In this document: positions 6,626-55,350 of the stretch, piece after piece
Numbering within the stretch: the stretch's first letter is position 1
Layout of the letters: each line of letters begins with the position of its first letter
Assembly (NCBI GenBank): GCA_964658305.1
Contig: OZ210885.1
Span: 1,798,001-1,862,000 of the forward strand
Reading direction: 5' to 3'
DNA: 64,000 bases
Source of the DNA: Leptogorgia sarmentosa
Taxonomy: Eukaryota
Translations under genes and position numbers: made by a program
Notes under the pieces: model-generated
What the model was told of the DNA's origin: nothing
The model's input: only the letters and a program-made list of their open reading frames with translations
Database searches by the model: none

Positions 6626-7474
6626 TCAGCAAGAAAATAGAACCTTGAATGCTTTTTTCCCCTCTTTGCGTAAAACATTGTTTTTCCAGAAGAAAATAAG
6701 ACAGTTGAATGTAGAGTTCGCATTCGCTATAGTACTTGCAAAAAAAATTGGAGCTCTCTTATTTTCTGACGTTAATTTCTTGGTGAAGTTAAATGCAATG
6801 GAGATAAATGCTGGAATGTACATCAATAACAGAAAGCCAACGGCCAACAAACAGGTTGAAATGTTCTTTAAATTGACAGGAGACATCGTGGATGTTGATG
6901 ATGTTGAGTTTTCACGACGAACTTTTCGGCGAATCATGAATAATTTGTAGTTGAAGAACACGAACGGAGGGAATACTGCAACGAGGAAAATGATCAACGC
7001 CTTTGGAAAGGAAATGACTAAGTCATTAGCAGAAATTATTGCTAGAGTAATCGGCAAAAGAGATAATACTGCAATAAGCGTTACAAGTTGGCGTCTTGTG
7101 AGCGATGTTCGATGAAAAAATGGATAGTACGTTCCCAGATATCGTTCTAGGCTCATCACCAGAAGAGCAATTAAAGAAAAGCCAATAAACACGTCCGAAA
7201 TTCGCTCGTAAATTTGCACCCTGGCTAGTAAATCATTCTTTTCTTGCATCCACCAAACCAGGCGAAGAATCAGGATTGGATGATTCGTGATAACCACAAG
7301 GAAGTCGAAGAATGACAACACCGTGATCATAAAATAAAATAATTTATTTCGAAGATACGCTGAACTTCTCGCAAAACTGAAAATGACCAATAGGTTTAAA
7401 AATGTCCCAGCGCAAGTAAGAAGGACGTTGACAACACACAGAATTATTGACGGGACGTTCACTGCAAGATCCAT
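6626..7474 (-). CDS. Intronless class A GPCR, tandem paralog of 878..1738
   Basis: 282-aa ORF that is collinear and highly similar to the first copy (SLERY, NSTFNCLIFFW). The 5' and 3' flanks are also homologous; the C-tail is shorter. Confidence 0.9.
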   Translation of the reverse strand: MDLAVNVPSIILCVVNVLLTCAGTFLNLLVIFSFARSSAYLRNKLFYFMITVLSFFDFLVVITNHPILILRLVWWMQEKNDLLARVQIYERISDVFIGFSLIALLVMSLERYLGTYYPFFHRTSLTRRQLVTLIAVLSLLPITLAIISANDLVISFPKALIIFLVAVFPPFVFFNYKLFMIRRKVRRENSTSSTSTMSPVNLKNISTCLLAVGFLLLMYIPAFISIAFNFTKKLTSENKRAPIFFASTIANANSTFNCLIFFWKNNVLRKEGKKAFKVLFSC

Positions 7475-8110
7475 ATCTTCGGATAGAAATCAACTTGTCA
7501 TTTTACCGTCGATACACCGGTATGAACTGAGCTGTATTCCAACAACTTCCTTTACTTATTCTGGAATGTTTTATGAAGTGGAACACTGCGTATGCGCGTA
7601 GACGAAGCATATACGTGGGGGGGATTGTTGTGGGTTTTTGTTGGGAGGGGGCCGGGTAGTCGCCTCCCACATTCGACAGATTGATCTGCTTTTTATACCT
7701 CTAGACAGCTGTTATCATCGTCGGTACTTAAAACTCACTATCTCAGTCTGGAAAAAGTTAGGACTCTGAACTGGCCGTTTTCGACGATCTAGGGATTCAA
7801 AATTTCATCGCTTGGCGCCAAACATGATGGCGACCAATTGACAAATATAAATTCGTTTTTCAGTGCGAACTATCAAATTCCTGATGAAATGAAAATGACT
7901 ATAATTAATTATCCAAATTTCTGGTAGATTTGAAATTTTCCTCGCAGAAATACTGTACTAGAATGTGAATGCTATTACATGTTTTAACAAATTGCATAAC
8001 ATGGCCAGAAATGCGAGACATGCGCCTGTCTTGCTCAGCGGTTTTCTTCAAGATAATTTGAGAGCGCACGACTTTCCCACTGTGAATCAGTATGATAATA
8101 GCAAAACAAA

Positions 8111-14282: not shown

Positions 14283-14709
14283 TTACTTGAATGCGTTCTT
14301 TGGATGGCTGAATTGACGGCGTTGAATAGCCTTCGCAATTTGCTCTTCGCTTGGAGGATCTTGAGTAAAGATATCAAATCCAACGTTGGTTGCTTGCCAG
14401 TCATCTTCATGGCTAGTCTGGGACGTCAGTAGCCACGTGGTGAGGATAACAGGCTTTGATTTTTTGTCAGGACTCAGTTCCATGTGGCCAGACCAACTGC
14501 AGGTGGAATGTGCATTGAGGTATTTGTTTTGGTATGTCACAACCCATCCTAATGTATCTCCTTGAGTGTCAAATCTGCCCACAAGGTCATATTCGTGCTC
14601 GGCTGTTCCAACAGCTGAACAGTATTTTCCGACAAAGCTTCCCTTAATCTCATCCCAACTTGTCAGAGTCATCGTCGATCCAAGTTCGTTGTGCCACTTG
14701 GACGATACC
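14283..14709 (-). CDS. Avidin/streptavidin-family biotin-binding protein (main exon; first exon unresolved)
   Basis: Avidin motifs WHNELGS, Y-C-SAV, LGWVV, HSTCSWSG, TTWLL and DDWQATNVGFDIFT. Acceptor CTCAG lies immediately upstream of 14709. Confidence 0.85.
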
Positions 14710-14938
14710 CTGAGATAATTGGCAACAAGCACTACAAGAAACAATTATAGATACCATAGCGATTTTAATTAACTGACTTAAAATCCATACGTTTTTCTAT
14801 CTTTTGCAACATTTAAACCGCATCTGTGTTATACGTATAGTTCGTAGGTTGTGCCTACGGTACCTCAAAAAGTCTCTAGAAAACGATTTTCATTGTCCAT
14901 GTCTTCAGTAGAACTGGAATATTTTGTACGGGAACTAA

Positions 14939-20869: not shown

Positions 20870-22903
20870 CCCAGCTAGCACACAACGTTATCCCAACGTT
20901 GGTTAAATGTTGTATTTAGGTTAAGTCATGACTTAACGTAAATACAACATTCCCACCACATTGTTTTACTTATTTGAAATGACAACACGTTGGGTCAACG
21001 TTGTTGGAATGTTAAGTTTAACGTTCGATGATTTGATATTTTTACGTTATATAGTAACGTTGTATCCACGTTGGTTGAACGTTGTGATAAACGTTTGATA
21101 AAGGTGATATTTCGACGTCGTAAAGTTACGTTGTACTAACGTTGGTTGAACGTTGTGACTAACGTTAGATAAACGTGATTTTTCGGTTATATAGTTACGT
21201 TGTACTAACGTTGGTTGAACGTTGTGATAAACGTTTGATAAAGGTGATATTTCGACGTCGTAAAGTTACGTTGTACTAACGTTGGTTGAACGTTAAGACA
21301 AACGTTTGATGAAGGTGATATCTTCACGTCGTATAGTAACGTTGTATCAACGTTGCTTGTACGTTGTGGCTAACGTTAGATAAACGTGATTTTTCGGTTA
21401 TATAGTAACGTTGTATCAACGTTGGTTGAACGTTGTGATGAACGTTTGATAAAGGTGATATTTCGACGTCGTAAAGTTACGTTGTACTAACGTTGGTTGA
21501 ACGTTAAGATAAACGTTTGATAAAGGTGATCTTCACGTCGTATAATAACGTTGTATCAACGTTGCTTGAACGTTGTCATGAACGTTAGATAAATAATATT
21601 AATAAACAAGAAAAAGCTTTGTCAATTTTGCGTGTGCTATTAAGTGCCACCAAAGGCGTAAACGACGAGATATTAGAAGATATTATTCCAATTGCGTTGG
21701 ACTCTGTAGACCAACTTGAGGAGTTATGTTTGCGTTTAAAAGATCTCTGGTCACAATACGGTTTCAAAGGCAGAAAAGCAAAAAGACCATTTAAAGAGCT
21801 TGCAATATGCAAAGTTGTGAGTAAGTACAATTGAAGATGATACAACAGTTCTATTGTATAGATGGTTGAAATTTCGGTCAGGTGGTTAGAATACTGACAC
21901 CACGTTTTTTTTATTTTTATCTTCCATGTTAGAAGCATGCATGAGAGCTCAGAGAGAAATAACGGAGATAAATGTTAAGGAGCAGATTGGGGAAGTCTTG
22001 AAATATGCTGCAAGCAAGGCTGGAGGTTCCAGGTTCAAGGTAATAAACAAATGATTCTTCCTATTTTGTCCTAGTATGTTTGATGTATTAAATATTTGAT
22101 GAATTATATGCACATACAAATATACGTGTGTGTGCACGTAAAAGGCGTTCATAGTTTGTAAATAGCTAGAATATGCATATTGATGTCGAATCGCTCTTCT
22201 TTGCAGAACCGTAAAAATCCGATAGCGGTGAATCAAAGTGGAAGTGGAACCATCGTCATAACGTGATATAACATTTATGTTTAGAGTTTAGGGTTTTGTA
22301 GCTATATGAATAACTATGCTTGTGAATAACTCCCTTTTTTAGAAATCAATAAAATGTTAAGACAATTTTTAATTGTTTTATATACATGAATTATTTTGCT
22401 ACAATGGCCGACGTGGGAATGGAGTTCCAATTGTATCAACAAGCAGCCAAAGGTCTACTTTAAACCAAAACGATACGGAAACAGAAAGATCGACGTTTCG
22501 AGAAAAAAGCCTTCGTCGGGGAATTAGTATGCACAAAAGGCCGAATCTGTTTGCATTTTTTATTACGGATTGTGCTAACTTTTCTAACGTTATTTGCACG
22601 TTTTTACAAACGTTAGTACTAACGTTGTTACCACGTTCCTACGAGTTCACAAAACGACGTTCACACAACGTTAATTATAATGTTATCTAAACGTTGGACG
22701 AACGTCGAAACAACGTCGCTTGAACGTTGGCTTAAACGTTGAACGAACGTTATAATAACGTTACTTCCAACGTTAGTATTAACGTTGTTACCACGTTCCT
22801 ACGAGTTCACAAAAAGACGTTCACACAACGTCAATCACAACGTTATCTAGACGTTCGACGAACGTCGAAACAACGTTGCTACAACGTGATTGTGCTAGCT
22901 GGG
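20870..22903. mobile_element. Non-autonomous EnSpm/CACTA (CMC)-like DNA transposon, about 2.03 kb
   Basis: Termini CCCAGCTAGCACA..AACGTT and AACGTGATTGTGCTAGCTGGG with TT on both sides (2-bp TSD). Long subterminal AACGTT-rich tandem arrays lie at ~20885-21590 and ~22585-22890, with an internal coding relic between them. Confidence 0.75.
21619..22040 (+). pseudogene. DUF4806-like accessory ORF relic inside the transposon
   Basis: IPIALDSVDQLEELC..LWSQYGFKGRKAKRPFKELAICKVV, then an intron, then ACMRAQREITEINVKEQIGEVLKYAASKAGGSRFK (from 21933). The pattern resembles DUF4806 with an internal deletion. Confidence 0.5.
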
Positions 22904-24447: not shown

Positions 24448-24919
24448 CTAATCTGAGGCGTGAGTAGATAAGGCGAACGCAAAATCCCATAACTGTCGAA
24501 GAAAATTTCTCTTCTTCATTTTCGTTTCAAAATCTTCAGGGAGCGCAATCTTTAAAGCGACTTCACAACGTTTAAATTGAGACTTAAAGTCGCCAGGATC
24601 CTCGCGCGGCCTCGAAAACTCCTCCACCTCATCGTAATACACTGTCAACGCGGATAAGAAGTCATTCTTAACATCTGTGCTTGCAGGTAAATGTTGGGAC
24701 TTGGTAATTCGAACCAAGCGAACATCTTTCCAGAGACCTTTATCAACAGAAAACGGCTGGTCATCAGTGGAAGCTGGCTTCAATACGTTGGCGTATTTCT
24801 CGTAATCTGTGCCAGAAATTTCATCTTGTTTCAAAGTCGCTCGTGACTGCAGCAAGAAACGTATGTCAACTTCACGGCCATCAAGAATGAATTGTTCACT
24901 TTCTCGCTCTTCGTCTTGT
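24448..24919 (-). CDS. Helicase-RdRP gene, last coding exon
   Basis: Acceptor TATTTAG at 24920-24921. A phase-2 join gives R-QDEERESEQFILDGREVDIRFLLQSR; the stop ends at 24448. Confidence 0.75.
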
Positions 24920-27900
24920 CTAAATAAGAAAGTACAAGCAGGAATAATTCAATAGTGTACAAAAACACCATCAAATGGATCTGGTAGTGTCAAATAGTAT
25001 TTATAAAATAACCGGGAGTAAGTGAAAAAGACTGCGCGCGCGTGATTGGCTAACAGCCGTTGTTAATGTGAGATTATGTAAACACAGCTATTTCCCGCTG
25101 CTTCTCGCTATTCCGTTATTCCGCTTTTGTCATCGTGTTATTTTGTAAAACTCGTGCAAGTTTGGGAGAACTCGAAATGTGTGGAAACACTTGCCCTTCG
25201 GGCTTGTGTTTCCACACATTTCTCGTTCTCCCAAATTTGCACTCGTGTTTACATAACTCGATGTAAACATAGGAAAATGTTTCTAGGCATCAGACATATC
25301 TAGACATCAGCAGGCGGCACATTAGGAGAAAATTAGTACTTTATTAATAATTACCTATTTCGGTTGCTCTGCCAGATTCGTTTTACATCCGTGACGCACC
25401 ATCGAAGATTAGGAAATCTGACCTCTTTAAATGCCAATTTCTCGTCAAATTTCACGTAAAATTCGACATCTTCGCGGTAGATATCCACTGAGTAGGTTTC
25501 CATGTAGACTGCGTTCTCCATGTGGAATCCATACGATCGAAGGAAGTTCTTCATCTTGTCTTCCTGATAAGCAATGGTAAAGAAAGAACTTCTAGAAGGC
25601 TTATTTTTTACTCGTTTTTTACTCGTTTCATCGCTTCTGATTTCTTTTCTCGGCCTTCTTTTCCTTCTAGTGTGACGTTGCGTTTCCTGATCAACATAGT
25701 CAATTTCCTTTGGAGCTTCGCGTTCCGTTTGGTCGAACCCTTTTTTCAATTTGTTTGCTCTAAGCATGGCAATAGATACGGATTCACTATCTGCAAGGAA
25801 TAGATGTGGTATTCTAAACAGATATGCTCTTCCAAAGTGTACTGCTACTTCATGAATTCCATGTAATTGGGGATCATAGTCTCTTTCGAGGACTTGAAAC
25901 TGCAGTAAGAATTTTTCCGCAAAACGATTGAACATATATTGGGTGTCCTGTGTTGATGGATTTTTTACAAAAGCGAGATGTTGTGGGAGACCATCGTGGG
26001 TCTGATTGCACGGTCCTATGTAAGGAGAGAGGGTGAGCCCATCTTTCACACTTTTACTACCTTCGAATAACATCAAGTTGGCACCCTCTACAAAAGATCC
26101 ACTCATGAGAGACCACTTGTCTGCAGATGCTTGAACTGTCATACGTTCTAGTTCTCTACGTACTGCACGTATTGCTGGCTCACTTCCTCTGACTTCGAGA
26201 ATTGCTGCTTTCCGATGACGTGGGAGACGAGGTCGAATGACCACACTTGTTGCGCCCGTCTTCCTTGCAATTTCTCTAGATTTGCTTTTCTCGACACCCG
26301 ACATGGAGAAGGAAAGAAGAGATGAAAGGAATATCACGCTGTAATCTTCGGAACTAATGCAGGCAAGCATAATTTTTACATCAGCGTACTGCGCCAATAG
26401 TTGATATGAACGTTGCATGTGGTCTTGAAGAAGCTCGATTTTGTCAATCCCAGTTAGTTCAGAAACCTTTTCCTTACCAAGGATACGTGAAAATGGTTCT
26501 GGAATATCTATGTCGCCAATCTTTTCAAAATCGTGAAAGAATTGTATCAACATCCGGCCAAGGTCGTCGAGGTTTGTGCATTCCTTTCCTTGTTCATTAC
26601 ACGTCTCGCTTTTGACGGCGCCCATAACATTCTCGAACTTCGTACACAAGTTTACATCTGAGCTCCGTCCACCAACAAGTTCGTCAAACTTTCGGAAAAC
26701 CTCGTCTCCTTCAAGAATTTTAACTTCTTCACGTTGTATATACTGCGAGATAAAAAGGATGCTCATTGCGTTGGAAATGTTTTCAACATCAGCAGGATTT
26801 CGCAACAAACCGATTCCAACGCACCATTGATGAATAGTCCGGAAGATCAGCAACAAAAGAGGATACTTTTCCACGAGGTTGGAGAGCAACATGGCCATTA
26901 GGATACTGACCTTTGACGCGCTTATATCGCAGACAATGTTGGAGGAACATTGAGTTGATGTAGTCAGTTTTTCAGTTGGTTTCTTGCAAATAAGAATCTA
27001 AGAAAAGAAAATTATTCAGTAATGTAAGATATTTTGTGCAGTGAAAATCCATAAATTAAGTTTTCCTTACGATAGGTCATTTTTCAAGTCCAATGTTTTT
27101 CAGTCCAATCTTACTTGGCTGTGGTCTCAAGCATAGGGAGTTCAAGATGACGACAAGGGATCGACTACGAGTACAGACCAACAATCCGGATGAGTAAATA
27201 CAATTGAAACAATTTCCACCAAACATATATGCAGAAAAAAAATTATGGTGTCATTTCGCTTTTTCCTTGGCCATGTACCTTTAAAAAGGACTACGTAAAA
27301 AAAATATCTCACTACAGTGAGATATTAAATTTTGGAAATCTACATGTACTCGTAGTCAGTTGTCGGTATCTTAAACTACCCAATATCTAATAAAGCACGT
27401 GTTTTAAATTGTACGAAAAATGAAATTTTCTTACCGGATGGCGTTTCTCTTTATTTTGGAGACGAACTTCGAAGAAGAGATTGTTTTTTTCTTTGTCATT
27501 CTCTTCGGCCTTCAGTTTACACACAAGTTGCTGAAGAATGTTCTGTTCCATTTCATTGTTTATGTCGCCATCAGTGGTGTGGGTACTTGGGATGATACAG
27601 AGTTCCATGTTTGAATTGTGATGGCAAAACAGCGTTCTTGATGTTCCAGCGAAGAAGGTGGAGTGATTCAATGCCTGGAGATGAGAATCAATTGAATTCT
27701 TCACACGTATTCGCTCTTTTACCTGTTCCAGCAACAGCATCTTTTCGTCATTGAATATTCTGACGAGACTCTCGCCGACCGCACAGTCAACGTTTTTGGG
27801 AGCGTTTCCGGGCGAATGCTGCTGACACTTCGACATGACGTCATCGAGAAGCCATGGAAGACCCAGTAAACGTTTTCGCTCAAGTTGTTCCCAGCTCTCT

Positions 27901-30900
27901 TCATATGTGGCTTCGTACCAGGCTGAAGCTTTCAGGCATATCTATATTACAAACGATAGGTAGAAAGGCTTTACGCTTGCAACTTTTGGTTGAATTTCTA
28001 GTGCGGTTTTCTCGTATTGATGGTGTAAATGAGTAAACCTGTCACAAACGTTTGGGGATAAGAGTTGCACTCAGAAGATCCGTTATTAATCCACTCGTTC
28101 ACAATTACCGAAGGGAGGAAAATTAAACAATGTACGAAATCTATTACCACAGGTCTATGCTCGTTACTTATTTATTGCCGTTATACGAATGGGTGAAAAG
28201 GAAAATTGTCCATTATTTCATGAAGTCCAAACGTAGTTCAGAGAAGTTTTGCAATCAGTGGAACTATCCAATAGGCTGTACTATCTTGTCTTACGTTTGA
28301 AAAGACATTTTTTTTAAAATTCAGACTCAGTACAAAGGTGAATAATATTGGAGCTCTATTAAAATCAGTTAAAAAAGCTCGGATGCTTCTCAGTATGAAA
28401 AATGATAATCAATTAAATTACCTCTTCTAGATCTGATAGTTTGGCGTCTTTCGTTAATCGCTGTTCGCTCATTCCAAACTCTTCAAAGAACTCACGTCTA
28501 AACTCGCCACGTATGCCACGCAATATCTCCTTTACGACATCTGCAACCCTTGGTTTTTCTTTAGGCAAGCGATTTCGCATCTTCAGGAAACAACCAGTGA
28601 ATATCTCCGCCTCTGAATGGATACCGTAGAGACGCATTAATGCTTCCATCTTATCACGGTATTGTTTATACACCTCCCTCGCACGAGTAAGGTATTTTTC
28701 TCTTCCTGACAAAAGAAAAGATTTATCTATTCGCATTCTTTGGTTGCACTTTTCGGAGGTCGTGTCTTTGAACTTTCGGCAACGCCGATAAAGCTTTCCC
28801 AGAACGTTTTCCGAGGGGTAGCTTGGTTTATCGGTTTTCATCATGAAGTCCGGATAATCTTTTAGCGCCTTCATCTTTGGCATTTTGGGCCACATTCCAG
28901 TTTTCGGGGCATCCACTGCCAAGGAATGAACCTCAGCTAGGTGTAGACAGATTTGTGATTGAATTCCATCTTTTTCTTGATCAGCAAGTGCTTTGTGTCT
29001 ATTATCAATAACCCCCAGTTGGTCTGACCGGATATAATCGACGACAAACTTGGTCAGGTGAGTGGATGTGATTGGTTCTGCCTCTTCTTTCTTTGGTGGC
29101 GCTTTGTAATTCATAGCTTGAAAATCTGGCTTGTTTGGGAGAAGACTTTGTTTCCAGCACACAAAATACAAATCACCGTCCAAGTCACCACCTGGAAAAA
29201 TGAAAATATTTCAACATTCTAAATTACCATTCGTTATGTAGACTAAATAGCCAATTGTGTTGTTGTACGTATCTTTGTAGATAATATAGACTGCAGGAAA
29301 TGTTATATAGTTGCTGAAAAATGTTTATGCGAAAAATTTATATATTTATATATAATCCATCTTATGATACGTTCAAACGCTACCATTGTTGAGCACGATT
29401 CCCATTTTGGCGTACGAAAACTAGTGCTGATGCCACCTTTCGACTTTGCTAAGTTTTCACCTTTGACAGTAGGAAATGTGAAAAATTTTGAATTTAAAAT
29501 TTGAAATGCATTTCCTTCATGCGTGCTCACTGACGAAATGATGCCAAAATGTGAATCGTGCCCGGCAAATCGTAGCGTGTAAACGAACTTTTTAAACGGA
29601 AATAAATAAAAGTTACTATTCCAGCTAATAGGCTGAATCTAGACTCCTATAACAAAGGGACTGTCTATACTGCCACCATTTTTCGAAAACGATGTCTTGA
29701 CTAATATGATAGTTGCAGTATATCTATTACTTGCCATCTTATTAGAACTCACAAGCCCCACTGGATACGCGATGGCCTTGGGCAACAAAATAGGACTACC
29801 AGAAGCTTACAGTTGCTGAATATTCCACTATTTAAGACCGCTAGTAGCCATAGATCCTTTTATTACCGTACAGTAAGCATATGGAACTCTTTAGAAACTC
29901 TTTAGAATCAAGTGACTCAGTACATATTTTCAAGCAAAAAATTAAATCTCATGCAATTATTAAAACAGTTTATACTATCTTAGGATTAGTATTTCGTTTT
30001 GTACATATAATTAGTTTATTACTTATTGTAAATTATCACTGAAAAGCTTCCTTGTATTCTAGGAGCATTTTAGGTTATTTAATGTTCAAAATCGTGGAAA
30101 TGGATGGTTCGTTAATTAGCATAGCATATATTGATAAGGAAATATTAATTAACAACATTAATTAGCCCGTATTAATTAGCATATTTACCTGACATCTCGC
30201 TGGGGTGAGGACGCAATCCCACTCGTGGAAAAACAATACAATCAACCAGATGACTGAGGCCTGGGGCATTCACAGCCTCGAACTGACGGATATCCCCGGG
30301 ATGTAAACATGGATTTCGTGTGACAACAACTGGACCGGTGAGACATCTTGTATCGTCCAAGTTGAACTCGTGTTCTCCATCTGGTTCAGTTGAAACTGCC
30401 GAATACTGAACGAAAACCTTAAAATAGATGGATTAAGATGGACATAAGTATTTTATATAATAGCCATTCTACTCAGTCTACCTTGAAAAAGAATTTTGAT
30501 AAATGAACGGACCGTTCCCCAATTTTAGACAAATTTTCGAATTAGGAGAATTCATCATCACGGCTAAGAAAGAGCACCATCAATTTAGTAAAATAATTCT
30601 GAAGTTTGAAACTCGTTAATTCAAAAGTTCATCAGAAAGGCGAAAGATCCATTCAATAGCAGCTTGTTTGGAAAATAAAAAATCCTTATCCTGCAATTTT
30701 AAATTTTGAAAATTAATAAATTATTTTTAAGAAAAAACTAACCTGTCCCGGCTTTAATATTCCTTCCTCGTCCATGACACCCATCATCAATCGTGCTTCC
30801 TCTGGCGGCAAAAGTATCCGGCCACGTGACAGGAGTTCGTGAATGTGATTTCTATGCATGGCAACCAGTAGGGACTTGAAGAATGGCTCCGTTGTTAATT

Positions 30901-33900
30901 GTAAACCACCATTTGACAACGTACGATAGGACATTTCAACTTTACTTCCGCTTTTTAAAAACGGAATTGCATCAATTTCGTTGACCAACATGTCTGCCAC
31001 AAAAATAAAATTTAAAAAGAATTATTATATTGTTATAAAATACAATTTTGTTCTATTTATTGTGACACATTTTTTATTGGCGACAAGGAACGTCTTATAA
31101 ACTATACCCTCACTAATAATTAATTATTGGATATTAATGATTATATAACAATTTGAATCATTTCAACATTTCTTCAAATCGTCAAGTTATTAAATATAAA
31201 GTAACATCGATAAGTTACGGAAGTTAAGATAAGTTACTGATGTGACTACCGAAGCGTCAAAAAATGAATCCTTCTGGTCTATAAAATTAGCTTATTAATT
31301 TGGCACATAATTATAACAAAGATTGTCTATACATACATTAAAGCATATAGTATGTTTAACGTACTTGCCAATTTATCCAACATTTCCTTTTGCAAAGCAA
31401 TAAATGTGTCATCGGGGACCTCAAGATTGGAAAGAAGCATAATGAGCTGGTGGTTGAGATAAACAGCCTGGGGTCGAGAAGTGTGGGTAACTTCAAGGCG
31501 ACAGTGATTGCTTTCGAATTTCTTCATACTTGGACGGAACGATGCTTTTCTGCCGGGCAATTTAGGATCACTTGCTAGTACTCCTTTGTAACCAGCGAAT
31601 CTTATTTGAAAAGCGGAGGGTGTAAAAGGCTTTTCTAACTTCTTTGCTACCTGAAACGAGAGTTCAGAGAATTATGCGTTGATTCGAGATTTGGATGAAG
31701 TGCGAACTATGGTTCAATGGATGTTGTATCCAATACATTGCAATGCATATATAGGTTAATCTAAATTATAATTACTGCATCAAGTCCACACATTTTTTCT
31801 TACCTCAACAGCAAGCTCCTGCGATATTCGGCCAATTCCATCAGAAAAACAATAATCATTGTCAGCAGTCATAACGTCGGGTTCTTCTGTGAACATTTCT
31901 TCATCACGTGTTTCTATGGCAACTGTATCCGAAGATGTAGAGAAACATTGACCCATTCGAGCCATGTAAGTGGCTACACACCTACACAATTGGAAGCACG
32001 TTGTATCAATGAAACAAGTTTTCTTTTATGGATATTTTTGCATGACTTAATATCGGTCTTACTGTCCATGTCTCATTAATTATGCAACATCTTCAATGGT
32101 ATTTTTAGTTCCATAAGTGAGCACAAAATAAATTACATTCACACGATACGACTAATCATTGAATACCGACACCATGCAATATGTTGGATCTTTTTAACGT
32201 AACAATAGCAATATAAGTAGGTAGTCTTTTCCCAACATATTGGTTGTAGGTATTGAAAGCCTCCTGACAAAAGTTGTGGTAGCCTTTATTCTATATTTAA
32301 CCTATAGGATACTGCAGTAGCGCCCCGCACGCATATTCACGCAATCGCATGAAAATATTCGTTAAAATTTCTTACTTTATTTGGGAAAAGTCTCCCATCC
32401 ATTCTCGCACTTCCTCCACTGAAGTCCTGGACCCCAAAAACCAACAGCTATGATTGCGAAGTTGACTGTTAGAAGCCGCTAGAAAATGGAATGTCGTTCC
32501 TGCAATGTTCAACCCAGTGTTTAGATCTTGATTGATATTATCCAAAATTAGGTCAATACTACCCCGTCCCATAGATAGCTTGGAATGATTTTCTTCTCGA
32601 ATACTGACGCAAATGAAATCATCGTTTGATTCAAAATGTCTGAGCACGCGATTCTTTACCATAACTTCGGGTGGATGCAGCAAAACCCTTGTTGGAGTGA
32701 TAACGACTCGCTTTATTAGAGCACAGTGATTGGGAATTTGATTCTGGTTTTTCGTCGAATGAAATTTAATTTCGCCTGTTAAAAATTTTTCCAGAGTCGC
32801 TTGTGGGTCGCAGAATGGATCTCTTTCAAACGCGAGGCGTAATTTCTCCAGGCAAGCCAAATCAGGATTTCGACCTTGAAGTAGCTCAGCCAGACGCCTT
32901 TCGCAAACTCTTCCACGAATGGACGGGTGGGAGGTGACAATACCCTTAATGATATAGCGGACATCAAAATTCAATTCAGTGGGAAGATTGATCTCGGGAA
33001 ATCGTCCATATGTGTCCTTTATCCAACAGTAAAAGGCTTTTTTCCCGAATCTCGTATCAAGTGTGGTTAGCAGTGATCTTAGAAGTGTGGATTCCTTTGG
33101 TGGGATTCTAAAGCAGTAAGTGAAGCTCTCGCCCCACGCTTTACTACCCCCTCGAACATCGACCACTCTTTCCCAGAACTGGTCCGCATCTGCATGGCGG
33201 GGAACCGGACGATCACGAAAACTTCGGACTACATCAGGATATTCATCATCAGTCGAAAATCTATCGGAATCGCTGTCAGATACTTCAGATAGATTCAGAT
33301 CAATTCCGGCATCCAAAGCATTATTATCTTCATTTTCACTGTCGATATCAGCATCTTCATCATCGTCAATGTCCGCAAATACATCGTTGTCATCAATATC
33401 ATCGGTATATTCTCGATATATTCTGGGAGGGTGCTTCACGGTAAAAATTGCTCTTATCATTTCATTGTCAGTTTTCTTGCGATCAACCAGAACAAAGTCT
33501 TCCAGTTCGCTATATCGGATTTCCAGCTTGTAATTTCTTCTTCGCCATACAAAGAATACGGTAAGCATGTTGAAGCTGTGCTCGAAACGCATTTCAACCT
33601 GCTTCACAGACTCCATATCGAGAGGCCATTCATACTGGAAGCTGGATCGACCGACCAAAGTTCCAACATGCAGGGAATGCGCGAGTAATGTACAGTTCTC
33701 TTCAACTTTTCGAGATGTTTGCGGAAGTAAAGGATACAGCCAAATATTCAACATCTCTTCTTTTTCCAGTATTCGACACCACACGTCAGAAACACTACAG
33801 ATAAACTCATCTTTGGATCGAAATTCATGTGAGATGTTATCTTCACGCTGTTGTAGTGTGAAAGCAATTGGTGGTGTCGAACCTTCTTCCTGGCCAACTG

Positions 33901-36226
33901 TCAGACCATGAATGTTCTCTGTCGGGGATGATGTCGTTGGCCTAACATTGAACGTGCGCTCTAAATTATCAGTTACAGTTTCCAATTGTTTAGCGCAGAT
34001 TTCTTTTCCCTGGAACAACTTGATGATCACGGTAACTGTAGGCCTATATCGCTTAACATAGGTAATGTTTTTTACTTCTTCATCTACAGGCGATTTCAGA
34101 TCAGGCTGTTTTACTTGGCACTTGAATTCACGAGCTTGTTGTTCGGAAACTTCGTTCTTCATAGCTTTAGAAACGACACATTTCATGTTTTCTTCTCGGA
34201 CAGCTAAATCCTTGGCCAACAGTTCTTCCTTTCCGGTACAGATTACAACAAACTCGCTATCGGATCGACGAGAAGCGCGGCCACGGCTTTGTACAAAAGA
34301 ACGTAAAGTTGCAGCACCCTCAAACCGAACGACCAAGTTGCAGATGGGAACATCTAATCCCTCTTCCAAGACACTTGTACTAATGAGTAGCTTTACTTCG
34401 CCGGATTTGAATTGTTGTAAAAGGACTTCTTGCTCGTCTTTCCAGGCCATTCCATCGAACCCACCATCTCCGTGACCTACAAATGCGGCAGGATTCAGCA
34501 ATCTGGATATGTCTGGATTCCCTCTGAGTTTTTCGCAAAGTTTGTAGGCTGTCTTACGCATACACACGAAAATAATCCCTCTGGAAGTTTGATCTTCTCG
34601 TACCCGAAGAATAAACTTGCGTATCCGGAGCTCCAGACGTCCGTAACGATCAGACATGGGGCAAGTCTCGTCGACCATTCCTGCGGCATGGTTCTTTAGG
34701 TCCACAAATGTCTGCTTTGTCCCGATCAACCTCTTCAAGGCACTTTGACTTGGGGAAATGGCTTGAATGATGCTGTTCACGCAACCGTTCAAGTATTCAA
34801 TCGCGTCCTTGTAAGAAAGAACTTGATTTACGTCAACAACGCTGAGCAGGCGCATGATGTGTTCACTGACGATCAAGGTTTCTACCATGTTCTTGTCTCC
34901 ATGACATCTCTCTATCAGATTTCTCAGCGCTCCTCTGAAATGATTACAAAACACAGTTAGGCGCGTGAGCAGCTGACCACAGCCTACGGTCTTTTCGATA
35001 AGGCTTTTTCGAAGTTCTTCAATATGATCCTTCACGAGTGTTTCCAGAATTATCTGACGCGTATTCGTTGTTGTTACAACGTCATACCAAGTGTCGGGTG
35101 CATTGACGTGAGCAACCAAATCATCCGATTCCACAGGCATCGTAACATGGCAATGTAGATTTTTAAGTAACTTTTCAAGCTTCTCGGTGGTTCTTTCTAC
35201 GGTCATTTCACCAGCCGGTGAAGCAGTCAATCCTAGCACAAGAGGTTTCAAAGAATCAGGTTTAAGTTGTTGATAAAAATCTTTCATGATTTGATTGTAA
35301 GGATGACCGCCATTGCAATGATGCGCCTCATCAAATACGAGCACAGAAATATTGGAAAGTCGAATTTCCGAATTTCCCACTGCGAGATTATCCAGAAATA
35401 TTTGGTGTGTGAGAACTAAAATATCCACTGTCCTATCGGCCAGCGCTTGATGAACATCTTTCTTCTGTAATGGGGACATTTCACCTGTCAATGTTGCAAC
35501 CCTCAAATGACGAAGCTGGGACTGAAAATACGCACTTTGTTGATAAGCCAGCGGTATACGATCAACGATGAATACCATAAACTTTCCGGGATTGAGTTGC
35601 TTCATGCAACTGAACACCATCGCTGCAACTAATGTCTTACCCGAACCAGTAGGAAGATAAACAAGTTTGTTTCCACGCATAGTTGCCAGAAAAAGTTCAC
35701 GCTGGTAGTTTCGTGGTGTCTGGGCTGTCAAACAGTCAATCTCTCTTGATGAGCAGGTTAATCCTGTTACGTCGCAGTACGTCATGGGCACACTGGACTG
35801 ATGTGTTTGACTGGACATGACTTCTGATGGACGAAATTCAATAACCTCAATTCCCAATGACTGTAGATATGGAGCCACCGTTGCAAGCTTCTTCATTTCA
35901 ATCTTTTCTCCGTCATTTAAAAGCCAAATATTTTCTACCTTGTAACAAACAAGCAATATCGAGGCGAGATACGTTATATTCCCCACGTGGGTCGCACATT
36001 CTCGGCAACGGATTATATATGGACAATATCTAGCGCTTCTTGCTGATCGCGAGTTCTCTTCTTTTGTAACTTTAGCGTAAGCCTCGTCTTCCATTCCTAC
36101 TCTTACTGCAAGGTGTCGCTGTGAAGGGGGCATTGTTGCAAGCATTAGGATTTCTTTTCGTGCCAGTGTACTGTCACATTTTTTGCAGATAAGAGAAATG
36201 CCGGTTGTCACGTGATTTGAGGCCAT
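24448..36226 (-). CDS. Multidomain RNA-silencing enzyme: Zn domain + RIG-I/Dicer-like DExH helicase + cellular RNA-dependent RNA polymerase + degenerate nucleotidyltransferase-like + KH-like + unknown C-terminal domain (about 2728 aa)
   Basis: Nine coding exons with GT-AG introns and consistent phases: 36226-32376, 31981-31804, 31650-31365, 30993-30743, 30417-30189, 29191-28422, 27941-27435, 26997-25355, 24919-24448 (8187 nt, a multiple of 3). Helicase motifs LPTGSGKT, DEAH, TAS and QSRGRA. RdRP motifs ARMGQCFS, FSDGIGRIS, FQIRFAGYKG, RNPCLHPGD, SGGDLDGD and KASAWY. Confidence 0.9.
25144..25253. repeat. Palindromic repeat in the last intron of the RdRP gene
   Basis: TGTAAAACTCGTGCAAGTTTGGGAGAACTCGAAATGTGTGGAAACAC pairs with GTGTTTCCACACATTTCTCGTTCTCCCAAATTTGCACTCGTGTTTACA around a GCCCTTCGGGC core. 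Confidence 0.8.
25355..26997 (-). CDS. Helicase-RdRP gene exon 8 (second half of the NTase/PAP-associated-like region, KH-like domain, start of the C-terminal domain)
   Basis: Acceptor TTTCTTAG|ATT at 26997, open for 547 codons, donor AG|GTAATT at 25355. Confidence 0.8.
27135..27381. mobile_element. Degenerate MITE in intron 7 of the RdRP gene
   Basis: GGGAGTTCAAGATGACGACAA..GACTACGAGTAC and GTACTCGTAGTCAGTTGTCGGTATCTTAAACTACCC form imperfect TIRs. Confidence 0.6.
27435..27941 (-). CDS. Helicase-RdRP gene exon 7 (end of RdRP head domain, start of NTase-like fold)
   Basis: ICLKASAWYEATY..LLGLPWLL runs in frame into FFAGTSRTLFCHHNSNMELCII; donor CCG|GTAAGA. Confidence 0.85.
28422..29191 (-). 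CDS. Helicase-RdRP gene exon 6 (catalytic DLDGD)
   Basis: GGDLDGDLYFVCW (DLDGD at 29186-29172), LGVIDNRH, HSLAVDAPKTG, YPDFM, VLGKLYR. Confidence 0.92.
30189..30417 (-). CDS. Helicase-RdRP gene exon 5
   Basis: VFVQYS..GPVVVTRNPCLHPGDIR..HLVDCIVFPRVGLRPHPSEMSG. Confidence 0.92.
30743..30993 (-). CDS. Helicase-RdRP gene exon 4
   Basis: EPFFKSLL..RGRILLP..LMMGVMDEEGILKPGQ. Confidence 0.9.
31365..31650 (-). CDS. Helicase-RdRP gene exon 3
   Basis: PSAFQIRFAGYKGVL..RPSMKKF..YLNHQLIMLLS. Confidence 0.9.
31804..31981 (-). CDS. Helicase-RdRP gene exon 2
   Basis: YMARMGQCFSTS..YCFSDGIGRIS. Confidence 0.9.
32376..36226 (-). CDS. Helicase-RdRP gene, first coding exon (Zn domain, DExH helicase, RdRP N-terminal region)
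   Basis: 3851-nt open exon with ATG at 36226, 16 nt after an acceptor-like TTTTTCAACAG (so an upstream exon may exist). It ends VITPTRV..NRVLRHF..FLAASNSQLRNHSCWF..WMGDF, the start of the RdRP domain. Confidence 0.92.
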
Positions 36227-42628: not shown

Positions 42629-45600
42629 ATGTTGAAATTTCACATTCTTCTGGTTGTTTCGGTTGTTTTGCCAAGTAGACTTGATGGTAAGTGTAAATTA
42701 CTACAGGCGTACATTTCGCTCAATCGATTAGCAGTTTCGCAATTGACAACCCGCAAACCACCCGCGGTTCGTTTGGAGAGACAACACAATGTAGGAAGGA
42801 ACTTTTAAGATTCATTTGAAGAATAAGATATTAAAGATATCTTATTATTGCACATCCATGAGTATAGAGAATTACGGGCAGTGGAGCCGTGAAGTAAAAT
42901 TCCTATCTTATATCGCACTCACGATTATTTGGTACATGATAGTGGAAGTCGTATCAACGTTTTGATTGCTTGACATTTTCTTGCCTGCAGAAGTTTTATT
43001 ATCGCCTGTTTGCAGGCTGAATGAAAGACGGGAAGTACAATGTCTGTACTGCTACACGTTATGCACAGGGTTCTCTTATAGCAAGCGAATTGTGTGACCA
43101 TAAGCAAACAAATAAACATTTTGTTAATGTTTTTTAGCTGCTTGTCCCAATGAGTGGAAAGAATACGAAGATATTTGCTATAAAAGGTTTCCAGCAAATT
43201 CTTGGAGGAACGCCAAAAAAGCATGTGAGGCTATTGAGGCTAAACTGGCTGAGCCAATAGGGGATGAGCAAAACAAATTTCTGAATGACACGTTTGAGGG
43301 AAATGATTGGCTAGGTTACACTCGATGTCATAGAAACAGCACGTGTCGTCTGGATTTCTCTAATGCCGCGTGGACCAACTGGGCGGCTGGTCAACCAGAC
43401 AAGTCACCGCAATATCCCCCGGGACAAAGAAACAAGGACTTCGCAGTTGTGATCCGAGGAGATGGAAAATGGATAGATCAACCAAAGCAGGAAAAACGTC
43501 GTTATATTTGCGAAAAACCAGGTAAAGCTGGATTTCTGGGGTGGGGGGTTGGGCGGGGGGGTTGCTTCAGCCCCCCTAAATATTTTTTGATTGAAAAAAA
43601 TGTTTTTAGAACACTAAAAAGCTTAAAAGGAAAACATTCTAATAAACGATCGGCAAAGACTCGCAAAAGGAAGCAATTTAAGGCCTAGATTAAAGGCCAA
43701 CCCTCACATTTTATCTATTTGAAAATGTAGACATGTAAAGGACAGGTAAAGGTGGAAGCAAGACGTGAACGATAATTTGGGGGTTGAATATTCAAGTACA
43801 CACATGTGACGACAACTGATTTCAAATGGTAGTTCCATTACACCAGTTTCGTCGGTGTTTAGATTATGCTTTCGCCAATTTGGAAAAATCATTAGTTGTA
43901 CTGCAGTGTACTCGTCTATGCCAATCAGCATCTAGGAATCTTATTTATGGTAATTTTAATAGAAACATTCTTTTTTCCCAGAGGACCTATGTTTTGGCAA
44001 CTTTTGTAACCCAAAAGGAAGTACTTGTGTTGATGGAAAATGTGTGTGCAAGCCTCCGCATTATGGTGAATATTGTTATGGTAAGTTCTGTTTTGTATTT
44101 CATAACATTGCATGGATAGGCTTACTGGAAAAATTAAAAAGTATTAATGTTTGAATGACAGGTCCATCGTTTTGTTATCTATACATAATTCATATACCAA
44201 AACAATATACACATAATAAACGGCCGATTTTTACGATCGGCAAGTCAAGTAAATGTTTTATCATTCAGTTTGCTTCAACTTTTTTCCCTCCATGTATATT
44301 ATGCGTCCTTTGCAAAAATTCAAAGATGTTTAATGTTTGGAATAACTAAAACAAGTTTTTGAAATGAGTGTGTTTATGTTTCAGGTCTGCCTTGTGATAA
44401 AAAACCTTGTGAAAACGGGGGAACATGTAAAAATGTACCGGAAGGCTACACGTGTACATGTATCAATCATTACGCAGGGAAAAACTGTTCAGGTAAATAA
44501 TTATTCATTGTCTTTTTCATTCAAATTAATCTACACAATTTACATTGTGTAGATTAATCGAGTAGAGCTAATATGAGTAAAAATTAATATCAAAAATTAC
44601 AGATTTTTGTCCACGATTGATCAAAGAACAATTAATGTCAACTTTTTCTGTCAAGTCATGTCCCTTAAACTGTGGTTTTGTACTATAATTAATTTATATA
44701 ATTAATGCACTATAACATACATACTGGCCATGTAAGTTAGCAAACTTCAAAATGTGACATAAAGGTAGGTCCCGGATAAACGTTCTATTCACTACCGATA
44801 CAATAAGATTGGGCGTTTCGACCAAAACGCCTCTTCCCGAGGAAGGGTCGTAGTGAGCAATTCAAACTTTTTCTTCCTTTTGGTATTCTAATTCTACTAT
44901 TCCATTGTGCCGCAATGGTAATGCAACAAGCAAGCATATCGTATTCACTAGAAATAAGTAAACAAACAAGCAAGGCTCCAAAATATAATATACATATTTT
45001 TTCACCTATTCAGATGTCTCTTCACAATATGATAACTATAGATTATTTTTCAACGAAAAATGTTGGTATACGTGTTTGAAAAATCAAAACGTTACAAAAA
45101 ATGTTTATATACACCATAGAAATTGTAGTATCTTTTTTCATTACTTTCAGAACCACCTCCATGTAAGATTAATGATCCCTGCATAAATGGTGTTTGTGAA
45201 GACATCAGCAACGTTCAGTACAAATGCAAATGCAACATGGGCTGGATTGGAACTACTTGTGCAGGTATTTTTTAAATACTAATGCTTTGGTCTTCAAATT
45301 CATGAATGTAATAATATAATAATGGTTTCACAAATTATTAGGCAAGGGGGGGGGGGGGATGTTATTTGGATAAAATGGTCGATCCTAAAGAAATACCAAA
45401 AATTGGATATTGTTTTTTCCAGAACGACCATGTGATCGCAACCCTTGTCCCAAAGCAAAGAAATGCGTTAACAAAGGATTTACACACGAGTGCGTTTGTG
45501 AGCGAGGCTGGACGGGCAATAACTGTGAAAAAGGTAAGAAATCTCGTTTAAATTTAATTTTTCGAATAAAAACCAACCCAAACTATTTACCCTCCCAAAC

Positions 45601-48600
45601 CCCCGCCCCCGCAAAATTATCACAAAATGGATTGGTAATGAGCGTCAACATGCATTATGCATTTTCACGTTATAATTTCGAGTCTTTTACTTAGTGTAGC
45701 TGGAACTACAAGCTAATATTTTGAGATTATTGATGACAATATATTTTTCGACAGAGGGAGTGACTAATGGTGATCCTCACTACAGAACATTTGATGGTAG
45801 ACATTACAACTTCCAGGGCAAGTGTGAATATATTTTCGCCAAAGATTGTAGCGAAGATCATGCTTTTGAAGTTCTTCAACAGAATGAAGCTTGTGCCAGG
45901 CCCGGTAGCTGCACTAAATCTCTGAAAATTATCACCCAACAAATGGAGATTAGAATGGAGAGAGGGGGAATCGTTTATGTCGACGGAATTCGCGTTCCTC
46001 TTCCCTGGAGAGCTTCGACACCTACAACACCTTCGAATCTGGAAGTAAGGGAAGCTAAACCTCAGACAACAGGTAATCTTAACCAGAAATTTGAATTATT
46101 AGCAATTTTATTCTCGCCCAATTCCTTTTACAATAATGTAGACTGTATTTAGCAAACGTATTACAAACTTAATACAGGGTGAAAGTCCTCACAGTTGTAA
46201 TAATTATATCAATGATGTCATAAAACTACCAAGCCAGAAACGACTGCTACACTGAGGCGAATCGCAACATGCTCAAAATCGTGTATTCCAACACTGGCTG
46301 CCCGTAAAGCCGAATCAGCCAACGTTCCAAACGCTGGTCGTTGATTTCGGCGAACTTTTCCTAAAAATATAAGGTTCATTTAATTCAAACACGGCATTCT
46401 GAAGAAATCATATCTCCGAAAGAAAGGGAAAGCAGTTTCCAGGCTTTAATCAACAAAGTACCGGTCGCGCCACTTCCAGTGTGATATGAATAATAATTTT
46501 CTACACAGCACTGTGAGATTTGGGTGTCTCTTTTTCTTTGTCTATGTGAAAACGTATTAGCAATTAATTATTAATTATTAATTATTATGAAGCATATAAA
46601 TTCTATGAATAAGTTTTTGCAAATAAACTGCTATTGCTATAATCAATAAATCAAAGGGCACCTGAAAAATTCAATAGAGAGTTGGGCTGCATGGACCAAT
46701 CAGATTGCAAGAAGTGTTATAGCCACACAATTGATACTAATGTATATACTACTTCAGGTGAGGTAACTACAATTACTGGCCACGGAAATGGTGCTTTTCT
46801 GCAAGTTCCTGCTCTCTTGTTTTCTGTCCGTTGGAATGGCTACATGGATGTGAATGTAAAAATTAACCAACGTTATAGAAACAAGACCTGCGGTTTGTTG
46901 GGAAATGCTGATAGCAATGTAAACAACGATTACCGACTGCGGGACGGGACTGTTACTCAAAATGTTGCAGAGTTTGGAAACAGCTGGAAGACGAATCCTC
47001 ATTGCGTGAATGGCAAAATTCCACCAGATCCATGCACGATGCTCAGCAGACAAGAATACATTAAGATCCAACAAAAGTGTGCCAGAATGAGGCAGCCACC
47101 ATTTAGCCAATGCAATGAAAGAGTCAATTCAGATAATGGTCATATTACTGACTGTGAATACGACGTATGTGCTATGCATGATTCTAACCCATCTGGAGCC
47201 TGGTGCCAAGCTATGGAAACGTACGACGAGGCTTGTACTGCGTTGGGAGTCAAAGTTGACTGGGAAGGAAAACCCGGGTTTGAAGAATGTGGTAAGAAGT
47301 GCATCATAAACATTCCATTATAGGTTGCATTCACAGTAAATGCGAGAAAATTTTCTTTAGTAGAATTATACTAGTATTGAATTGCAAATACTGCAATTTG
47401 AGTAGCTTCTCAACTCGCTATCTATTTCTCCATGTTACCGAGAATCAAAGTTTCTTTTAATGAAAACTAATGTCCTTTTGCATGTTTTTTTTTATTTTCT
47501 GTTTAATCTCTGCTGCTGGATTATTTGATTTGGACGAGGTGTATATTTATCAGACAAATTCGTACAAAATACCTGACTGGAAATTATCCGCCTAGTGATT
47601 TGAAGCTGTTAAGCAATTGAAGCATGCGATCTTAGTCACTTCGTATTGTTAACTTCCTTATTTCTAGGAAATCCATGTGCCAATATTCCTTGCTTTAATG
47701 GTGCCATATGTAGGAATACGAACAGAACAGCATACGTATGTGATTGTCCCACAGGATTCAGTGGTCCTACCTGTCAAAATGTTGGTTAGTATATAATTTA
47801 AATTACATTACATCTTATTTTGAGGACAACTATTATATTTCATATCATTTTGGTGGGCAATTGTGGGTGTTGTGGGAATTACCATATAACGGTTCAGTGG
47901 TGCTTTTATATCCATGCCGGTGAGAAATGTAGGAAATTTTCAGGAAGTATATGGTAGCTGAAGGACATCATAGCTACAAAAAAATTCCAAAAAGCAACTA
48001 AAATGCAATAACGTTGTATTTTTTCTGTAATTTAAACTGCCATGCTTGGTAATATGTCAATTGTCTTCTTTCAATCCCCTTCATCAATTTTAGAAACCAA
48101 TCATAGGTAGTGACAGGTATTAATTTTTATCTTGCTATTTGTAGACTGCAGGCCTGGATATACTGGCCGTGGTAACCTTTGCTACAAGTTAATGGGTAGA
48201 CGACCTTGGCCTGTTGCAAAATGCCGACAAGGAGATCAATTCGTGTCTGCAGAAGACGAAGATGAAAATAGATTCATATACGAGAAATTTGTGGAACCAT
48301 CCAGAAAGTCATTGTGGATGCACGCCCGTGTTTGTGCAGGAGGGAAGCTTTGTCATCAGGATTACGGCCCCGTGTTCTACAACAACATCGATGGTGATCT
48401 GCCAAAGACGGGATGTGTCCAAATGCCTTTCGGGAAAGGGATGAAATGGTTCGTGAAGAATTGCAGAGCCGCTGCGGCCTATGTTTGCAAATACGGTGAG
48501 TGGTTTTAAGTGTCGATTCGTGCATTCTAGTTTTACATATAGTTATAGCCCCCCCCCCCCCCCCGAAAATGTTTGGGAAATACACGTTTTATCACATCAT

Positions 48601-48842
48601 TTAGGCCTTGTTGGACTTTTCAGCTGCCCAAAATCTACGAGCTGAACTAAGTTCTTTGTTCAGATTTGGTTGGTCTGATCCAAACACGAGTTTCGACGAA
48701 TCAGAGCACGCGTTATATACATGTTATTTCATAATAAACATTCCCTTTTAATGAATTATACAGGCATACACCGAAATAATTTTATAATGGCCAATATAAA
48801 AATACTTAAAGAACTGTTTATCTTTTTGCAGAAAAGTTTTGA
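42629..48842 (+). CDS. Secreted C-type lectin - 4xEGF - VWD/C8 - EGF - C-type lectin protein, paralog 1 (about 734 aa)
   Basis: Exons 42629-42686, 43138-43521, 43982-44080, 44385-44492, 45151-45264, 45423-45533, 45755-46072, 46758-47291, 47668-47784, 48145-48495, 48832-48842, all with phase-1 GT-AG introns. Signal peptide; WLG and [31 protein letters not shown]. Confidence 0.88.
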
Positions 48843-54243: not shown

Positions 54244-54345
54244 CATAAAAGTAGCTGTCAGTAGCAGGGGGACCCAGTAACGTTTCAAAGTTTGTGGCAG
54301 TTGGACGTTATCATTGGAGAAATAACACGTCTCCGCAAGGTTGGT
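54244..54345 (+). promoter_or_regulatory. Putative TATA-like box and non-coding first exon of lectin/VWD gene 2
   Basis: CATAAAAGTAGCTG homologous to 42219, with a donor-like TTG|GTAAGA at ~54344. Confidence 0.45.
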
Positions 54346-55350
54346 AAGAAACAATAATGCTTTTGCATACCGTATATCTTGAATTTGGGTTTGATTATAA
54401 ATATTTGCTTTATTATTTCGAAATAAAACCAGACATATCATCATCATCATGTATTTGGGTTTGTAATTCTACAAATTGTTACATGTTATCAAAATTTAAA
54501 ATACATTACAGTTTCCAAACTTTTGTAAACTATTAATTTTGATATTGTTTATACACTCAGTTGACAACATGCACGTTATATGCAACCTACAATCAGGGCC
54601 ATGTATATAGCTATATGGAGCAGATAACGCGGTTGGGTGTGTGCAGGTGTAATTTGTATAATATAATTTATTCATTTCCTGCCCGACGAAGTTAGCTGCA
54701 AACATATTGATGATTATTGTCGTATTTTGACGTGCTTTATCCCTCGTCAAATTAATATTATTATGCGTACATTAATAATAATTTTACACGCGTGTGCATA
54801 TATACGTATATGTAGCAAGAGTAAAAGTATTTAGACCTACAATCGTTTGCTCTTCATTTAATTCAGTCTTAGATAAATTAAAATATATTTTAAGATTTGT
54901 TTAATTAAATTTCATTTGTAGCAAAATTGTTTTAGAGTTTTGGCGCATGAGTATAGAAGACTTTGGGTCTTTGCCCAACATTAATCAGAGCTGTCAAATT
55001 ACTTAAGTATACGTTATAGCTAATTTGAATTGCAAAGGTTAAGAGTTTTTTCATGCATATGCACCCTGTATTATACAGAATGTCTGTTTGTAGGAATTAT
55101 TCGTAAGCATTTGAATGAATCCGTAGGATTTGTTTACATGGTTTATTCATTGCATTTCCTACATTTTGAGAGAAAACTCAACAGTCAAAGAAAATATTGT
55201 TAATGATAATTTCCGACTTTTTTTATTTTACATTTTAAAGATCAGTGTTATGGATGTTATTGGTCCCAGTTTGAAAATATTAAAGTAGCTACTGTAGAAT
55301 TGCTCTTTAGAATATAATTTATTACTTATATCATTCCTATAGAAAACAAG

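Follow-up and report, generated by a model that had tools for sequence, protein, structure and literature searches.

A gene on the minus strand of a 64,000-nucleotide stretch of the Leptogorgia sarmentosa genome (contig OZ210885.1, positions 1,798,001 to 1,862,000; hereafter the window) encodes a helicase-fused cellular RNA-dependent RNA polymerase (RdRP) with intact motifs, behind which lies a domain of the Cid1/terminal uridylyltransferase (TUTase) type that is likely catalytically dead and was likely kept as a folded scaffold. The helicase-RdRP part is already in print, while its fused tail of transferase, KH-like and barrel domains was found in no publication in a literature search for which most subscription papers were out of reach. 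An earlier reading of the letters alone (the original prediction) had placed a pseudo-nucleotidyltransferase domain at 26480..27780, in exons 7 and 8, and had offered two roles for it, RNA 3'-end binding or a scaffold; between these the scaffold is favoured, and 3'-end binding found no direct support.

The whole gene (24448..36226, minus strand) comprises nine exons (36226-32376, 31981-31804, 31650-31365, 30993-30743, 30417-30189, 29191-28422, 27941-27435, 26997-25355 and 24919-24448, the last with the stop). Joined at GT-AG sites, they form an open frame of 2728 codons, and the 2728-aa protein is 60% identical end to end to the Dendronephthya gigantea LOC114515528 protein (P0001). Contigs from runs X4, X5 and X6 (three samples of one study, unrecorded as RNA) were taken to be transcripts because the introns are missing from them. 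Their junctions between exons 6 and 7 and between exons 7 and 8 fall on the predicted bases: for example, in record 18 of X6, which spans 33130 (in exon 1) to 24169, 28422 is directly followed by 27941, 27435 by 26997 and 25355 by 24919. At the phase-0 GT-AG intron that divides the palm (26998..27434, minus strand), positions 2982 and 2983 of this record correspond to 27435 and 26997. The contigs bridge the 3' part of exon 1 to exon 9; the helicase core is carried by other contigs from this same long exon 1. RdRP and transferase thus belong to one open spliced chain, as had been proposed. Relative to the window, exon 7 showed no difference in X4 and X6 and two in X5 (at 27728 and 27793, both off the catalytic motif). 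Since the three runs agree with the window at the motif, its altered reading is not an assembly error. An in-frame 6-base insertion relative to the window was also seen at 32861, upstream of the RdRP domain, in the X4, X5 and X6 contigs.

The transferase domain starts in exon 7 (27435..27782, minus strand; N-terminal helix and first palm strands, aligned to a profile of 46 intact relatives) and continues through exon 8 with the helical central domain (26362..26997, minus strand; supported by alignment columns and the exon 8 model). The domain runs on slightly past the predicted end at 26480, to ~26362. All the motifs that had been quoted lie at their places in a single minus-strand frame once spliced: FFAGTSR (27656-27636), NSNMELC (27617-27597), RHP|ILIC (split by the phase-0 intron between 27435 and 26997), CDISAS (26931-26914), HQWCVG (26832-26815) and the LG..FF start of the helical central domain, LGRMLIQFFHDF (26562-26527). 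The core residues W, P and G and the LG..FF element are retained. On the other hand, the signature at 27597..27656 (minus strand) is degenerate, with G1954-T1955 for G-S and N1966-M-E1968 for D-x-D: the hFGS signature of active enzymes reads F-A-G-T in the window, and the D-x-D pair is absent, with no variant there in three runs. Moreover the G-x-x-K element that follows the third Asp in intact relatives is replaced by S2055..M2058 (26907-26896, minus strand). The third catalytic Asp itself, D2048 (26928-26926, minus strand), is retained, which the original prediction had overlooked. In Paramecium Cid1, D68N and D70N abolish function (PMC4066745). Thus with the first Asp and D-x-D, the G-S and the invariant Lys lost, the domain is likely catalytically dead and likely does not tail RNA.

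The fold behind these motifs is that of the Cid1 family. The intact profile was made from 46 relatives selected for G-S and D-x-D (G, S, D and D are thus present in 46/46 by selection), none of them from the window's paralog group; on it the spliced window protein scored 136 bits over aa 1911-2236, as against 10 bits for the best of 500 segment shuffles. Searched against PDB sequences, the profile of alignment A2 (62 members) found TUT7 (E 1.4e-18), TUT4 (2.7e-18), GLD-2 (6.9e-17) and Cid1 (8e-14), as well as TbTUT4 and Trf4; further down came KH domains (hnRNP K KH3, E 6.6e-5) and, weakly, RESC2 (0.48). PF22600 (MTPAP-like palm) was matched by 22/62 A2 members at E 0.05; relatives from Montipora, Nematostella, Riccia and Acytostelium and the Logan record P0005 pass its cut-off, and the assignment is already present in the precomputed annotation of relatives. 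PAP_assoc matched none of the 62 members at E 0.05, though its LG..FF start is present in the window. Pfam returned nothing at cut-off in exons 7, 8 or 9 of the window gene, the Dendronephthya ortholog matched none of its transferase families, and the ESM Atlas gave no usable match.

An AlphaFold2 model of the 819-aa C-terminal tail of the Dendronephthya protein, whose motif is likewise degenerate, reached a predicted local distance difference test score (pLDDT) of 86.8. It superposed on TbTUT4 with Z 22.5 (root-mean-square deviation 3.0 over 274 aligned residues, the match covering tail residues 1-320; Foldseek E 2.7e-7), on GLD-2 with Z 21.4 and on the inactive TUT4 module with Z 20.1. The model of window exon 8, in which transferase and barrel are each represented by one half, reached pLDDT 82.4, and the top ten rows of its VIA comparison were all TUTase or GLD-2 chains (Z 8.9-9.9). 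The original prediction would have fallen with the absence of a Pol-beta-like nucleotidyltransferase fold; the fold was looked for and is present. A Cid1/terminal nucleotidyltransferase (TENT)-type fold, with a Pol-beta-like palm and a helical central domain, is therefore confirmed for the window domain at the level of predicted structure. Identity with cGAS, OAS or the CD-NTases was rejected, their Z of 12-15 being under the TUTase values.

How widely the dead state extends was read from a profile search of 1.84 billion representatives, which gave 240 matches at E 0.001. The best 150 of the 240, ten earlier proteins and the window made an alignment of 161 rows, of which 62 cover motif 1. G-S and D-x-D are intact in 50/62 of these rows, including named members from Stylophora, Acropora, Nematostella, Riccia, Cavostelium and Acytostelium and a Mesotaenium-coded record, and altered in 12/62, including the window and P0100, a record identical to it in exon 7. 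Among intact rows the third Asp is Asp in 36/40, and the G-x-x-K element after it has Gly in 38/39 and Lys in 39/40; in a profile alignment this Lys faces the Asn of TbTUT4 GVRNS. The family occurs in many eukaryotes, and the dead state belongs to one paralog lineage of it, which the original prediction had missed. In the Nematostella protein LOC5511133, the full-length isoform X1 (P0256) keeps G-S, D-V-D, the third Asp and G-x-x-K together with its KH-like region and its barrel; isoform X2 (P0009) stops within the KH region.

A FastTree phylogeny was computed from 61 of the 62 motif-1 rows, all but P0100, a number of them being fragments with ~105 columns. In it the window groups with Dendronephthya and three fragments in one clade (support 1.0), sister to four rows that keep D-L-D (support 0.996). 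The first Asp is N, P, P, N and K in the five rows of this clade, G-S reads G-T, G-A or G-I in 4/5, and Dendronephthya has Glu for the third Asp. Whether orthologs retain D-x-D, a question that the original prediction had raised, thus has a divided answer: it is lost in the window's clade and kept in the 50/62 family rows. A tree of the RdRP domain (27 sequences) groups the window and Dendronephthya with Montipora paralog B and Desmophyllum (support 1.0), and Stylophora, Acropora and Montipora paralog A separately (support 1.0). Paralog A keeps the full catalytic triad. The Lys is gone from all five tabulated paralog-B rows, including the D-L-D-keeping Montipora, which also has His at the third Asp position. 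Montipora foliosa has both A (P0185, intact) and B (P0198, decaying). Together with the two groups in the trees, this points to a duplication predating the octocoral/stony-coral split and to stepwise decay thereafter.

D-x-D is also absent from Ostreobium and Caulerpa proteins and from an Ostrea-containing group (P0024, P0056, P0022, P0034; P0039 and related rows), all with the domain length kept. Moreover motif 1 is unaligned in 13/52 RdRP-bearing rows. Since 11/13 of these still score at least 20 bits on the intact profile and 10/13 keep an RdRP-to-barrel spacing of 688-875 aa (761-821 in 7/9 controls), the domain appears to degenerate without deletion in other lineages as well. By our count D-x-D was lost independently at least twice and possibly three times; the count is given as a range because the branching among the D-x-D-less groups has a support of 0.139.

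Behind the pseudo-transferase the chain continues into two further domains (24451-26343, minus strand) of which the original prediction made no mention. The KH-like domain (26134..26343, minus strand) was located by the A2 profile through hnRNP K KH3. The window exon 8 model matches KH domains with weak Foldseek values (E 0.012-0.085), a TM-score of 0.73 on hnRNP K KH3 and a VIA Z of 8.4; the KH fold is thus present, while the GxxG loop is replaced by G-V-E-K, and across 76 rows the commonest residues of the fourth position do not include Gly. Canonical KH nucleic-acid binding relies on the GxxG loop, so that such binding is doubtful here. The last domain (24451..26097, minus strand; exons 8-9, with a basic low-confidence insert) is a triphosphate-tunnel barrel of the RESC1/RESC2/Cet1 kind, as judged from the ortholog model: the C-terminal half of the Dendronephthya model matches RESC1 (Z 21.9), RESC2 (Z 20.4; Foldseek E 1.8e-9), Cet1 (Z 16.6) and Pct1 (Z 14.9), and the half barrel of window exon 8 matches RESC1 with a VIA Z of 7.6. 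A barrel-only sequence profile reached RESC1 at just E 0.12. R2592, R2642 and E2691 are conserved in the barrel. All four conserved Arg columns (78/80, 68/75, 57/85 and 50/71 rows) are retained in the window, and other acidic columns are conserved in 73/80, 66/76 and 64/71 rows. The three metal-binding glutamates of Cet1 are E305, E307 and E496; matched by motif pattern, putative Cet1 motif a would fall at E2407-V-A in the window, a place where Glu occurs in 29/101 rows. The barrel is a predicted 5'-triphosphate-binding module.

Several observations weigh against a dead domain that is kept as a scaffold, or against its assignment to the Cid1 family. On the side of the fold, the full-domain model is that of the Dendronephthya ortholog, which is 55% identical to the window over the region; the VIA Z of 8.9-9.9 for the window's own exon 8 falls in the range that helical domains reach through common arrangement; Foldseek of that model gave nothing at E <=0.001 and no TUTase among the matches listed; and exon 7 alone matches no Pfam family at cut-off and no PDB sequence at E 10. 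With Pfam also blank for exons 7-8, the transferase domain is visible only via its relatives. On the side of function, two carboxylates remain (E1968 and D2048), and Glu stands at the second D-x-D position in 5/5 rows of the window's clade. The transferase is moreover the least conserved folded part of the protein (44% and 48% identity to Dendronephthya, as against 75% for the RdRP), and 10/16 variants in the domain, among the 40 of 150 variant rows listed, change a residue. A limited regional search with the Stylophora paralog-A domain (7978 candidates scored) gave no octocoral intact paralog A among 9 matches, 3 of them unrelated. Finally, Nematostella yields no detectable secondary small interfering RNAs (siRNAs; PMC12768352), so that a role in the amplification of RNA interference (RNAi) is unsupported in cnidarians.

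These points can be set against four other explanations. That assembly or exon joining artificially produced the fusion or the altered motif is barely conceivable: the gene model was hand-built from one window, but RdRP, transferase and barrel exons are united at the predicted bases in intron-less contigs, the motif shows no difference in three runs, and named full-length orthologs share the domain order. A separate downstream gene and a mis-assembly were rejected. A residual activity with altered chemistry, using one metal ion held by E1968 and D2048, would account for the third Asp and for the clade-wide Glu. A Glu at the second D-x-D position is known within the Pol-beta superfamily. Yet the first Asp has become Pro or Lys in 3/5 clade rows, G-S is altered in 4/5, the Lys is lost, and single D-to-N changes inactivate Cid1-family enzymes (PMC4066745), which together make a surviving enzyme highly improbable.

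A domain in plain decay, retained merely through its in-frame position between needed domains, would agree with the low identity to Dendronephthya (an intact pair of similar RdRP distance shows 53% and 64%) and with the 10/16 non-synonymous variants, where 79% would be expected for random single changes with transition bias uncorrected. However, length and hydrophobic core are retained, the ortholog folds at high confidence, and between the window and Dendronephthya faster divergence is seen in the KH and barrel domains too, which means that the rate is not specific to the transferase; we regard such a vestige as improbable. A domain that is dead as an enzyme and still grips RNA, binding template 3' ends or the duplex surface and feeding the RdRP, is an unlikely alternative with a precedent in NTD1 of TUT4, which is inactive yet part of the RNA-binding surface and helps to hold pre-let-7 (PMC6488673), and which matches the Dendronephthya model at the Z given above. 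G1954, the Ser preceding the first Asp and the Glu at the second position are all kept in 5/5 clade rows, as a gripping role might lead one to expect. Conserved basic or pocket residues are lost, however (Lys in 39/40 to Met; Arg, His or Lys in 36/40 to Val), and the 3'-end pocket is closed in TUT4 NTD1 (PMC6488673). The scaffold is favoured over the clamp, the vestige and the altered enzyme because catalysis was repeatedly lost without loss of length.

As a scaffold, the domain would hold the KH-like domain and the predicted 5'-triphosphate barrel against the polymerase. The intact form (paralog A, Nematostella, liverwort and amoebozoans) may be a one-chain analogue of an RdRP complex (RdRC), in which the helicase would engage RNA, the transferase would tail 3' ends, the RdRP would copy and the barrel would hold the 5'-triphosphate ends. 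After a duplication before the octocoral/stony-coral split, paralog B would have lost the Lys; in addition, the third Asp would have disappeared in Montipora B and the first Asp in the branch of the window. The window copy keeps its helicase and RdRP motifs and the conserved arginines of its barrel, and it may polymerise without tailing or depend on a transferase in trans. A wider proposal is tentative and rather doubtful: that these proteins are ancient eukaryotic single-chain RNA-copying machines, made up of an end sensor, helicase, RdRP, tailing enzyme, KH domain and 5'-triphosphate barrel, in tailing and non-tailing versions that anthozoans split into paralogs, whose barrel grips long RdRP products by their 5'-triphosphate and whose role lies outside siRNA amplification, for example in antiviral signalling by double-stranded RNA. 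If true, it would give cnidarian RdRPs a job despite the lack of observed secondary siRNAs.

The upstream part of the protein is that of a helicase-fused cellular RdRP, with DEAD and Helicase_C domains ahead of PF05183 and its DxDGD in one transcript. The DExD/H helicase (34262..35710, minus strand; PF00270 E 2.5e-18, PF00271 E 2.3e-17) has motifs I, II and III intact. The cellular RdRP domain (28770..32701, minus strand; exons 1-6) is supported by PF05183 above cut-off in 6/9 exon frames scanned, and its catalytic DLDGD is intact at 29186-29172 (minus strand). At the N-terminus, a CxxC/CxxC domain (35894..36196, minus strand) shows a weak resemblance to the RIG-I C-terminal (Yippee-like) domain (PF11648, E 0.0013; its 19.4 bits fall short of the cut-off of 25.6).

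Helicase-RdRP fusions were published for Dictyostelium (RrpA/B/C), oomycetes, Hydra and Nematostella (PMC4791657). They likewise have the order DEAD-box, helicase-C, RdRP with DxDGD, and Nematostella LOC5511133 belongs to the present family; the ~820-aa tail of transferase, KH-like and tunnel domains is undescribed in the available text of that paper, where 'nucleotidyl' never occurs, nor does the word occur in that of the animal RdRP survey PMC6396948. Each Dictyostelium rrp gene was credited with two functional domains (PMC3950715). Partnerships of RdRPs with transferases are also on record: S. pombe Rdp1 with Cid12 and Tetrahymena Rdr1 with Rdn1/Rdn2 form RdRP complexes (PMC4066745), RDE-3 of C. 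elegans adds tails to the templates of RdRPs, and RDR6 products are extended by HESO1 (bioRxiv 2024.05.27.596008). As here, the complexes couple an RdRP to a Cid1-family terminal nucleotidyltransferase. In those complexes, however, the transferase is a subunit of its own whose catalysis is required, whereas here it is fused, is followed by KH-like and tunnel domains and, in the window copy, has lost D-x-D. The window protein, one polypeptide, thus resembles an RdRC at best and is no member of that class.

The palm and the helical central domain are shared with Cid1, GLD-2, TUT4 and TbTUT4, on which the ortholog model scored Z 18.6-22.5. At the place of G-V-R-N in TbTUT4, intact relatives have a G-x-x-K that is peculiar to the family, and the window differs further in N-M-E and G-T. 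A parallel to its state is NTD1 of TUT4/TUT7, which like the window domain is a retained nucleotidyltransferase fold that has lost catalytic carboxylates inside a multidomain RNA enzyme (PMC6488673). In NTD1, however, the second and third Asp are gone and the first remains, whereas the window domain has lost the first; and the polypeptide of NTD1 also contains an active copy next to it, whereas here the active copy, where seen, is in a paralog. The predicted barrel shares the tunnel fold of RESC1, RESC2 and Cet1, here fused to an RdRP; the Cet1-like tunnel of RESC2 is catalytically dead and binds the 5'-triphosphates of RNA (bioRxiv 2023.02.01.526499).

The window copy alone is a lineage-specific pseudoenzyme, and the larger point is the fused architecture. 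Amphioxus RdRP genes are intact with no RNAi role found (PMC6396948), and poly(I:C) raises three RdRPs in Nematostella (PMC8476169). The tail provides specific handles on the role of animal RdRPs outside nematodes, namely its tailing site, KH-like domain and triphosphate barrel, and all of these are present with an intact triad in isoform X1 of LOC5511133 from Nematostella, a genetically tractable animal. Moreover the natural series from full triad through partly decayed to dead separates the catalytic from the structural part of the RdRP-transferase pairing.

Other features of the window include a high-copy repeat within intron 8 of the gene (25000-25282), where the summed contig depth is ~9e4 as against ~125 nearby in X1; it contains an inverted repeat with 50-nt arms at 25147-25196 and 25200-25249 and has the appearance of a miniature inverted-repeat transposable element. 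An element at 20870-22903, which has terminal inverted repeats of 13 bp and is rich in internal repeats containing AACGTT, is likely a non-autonomous DNA transposon; the frame inside it (21589-21831) has no Pfam match. An avidin-family frame lies at 14286-14744 (minus strand), and two similar rhodopsin-family receptor frames at 881-1759 and 6629-7489 (minus strand). On the plus strand, two similar sets of frames in 43128-62390 encode C-type lectin, VWD and C8 domains.

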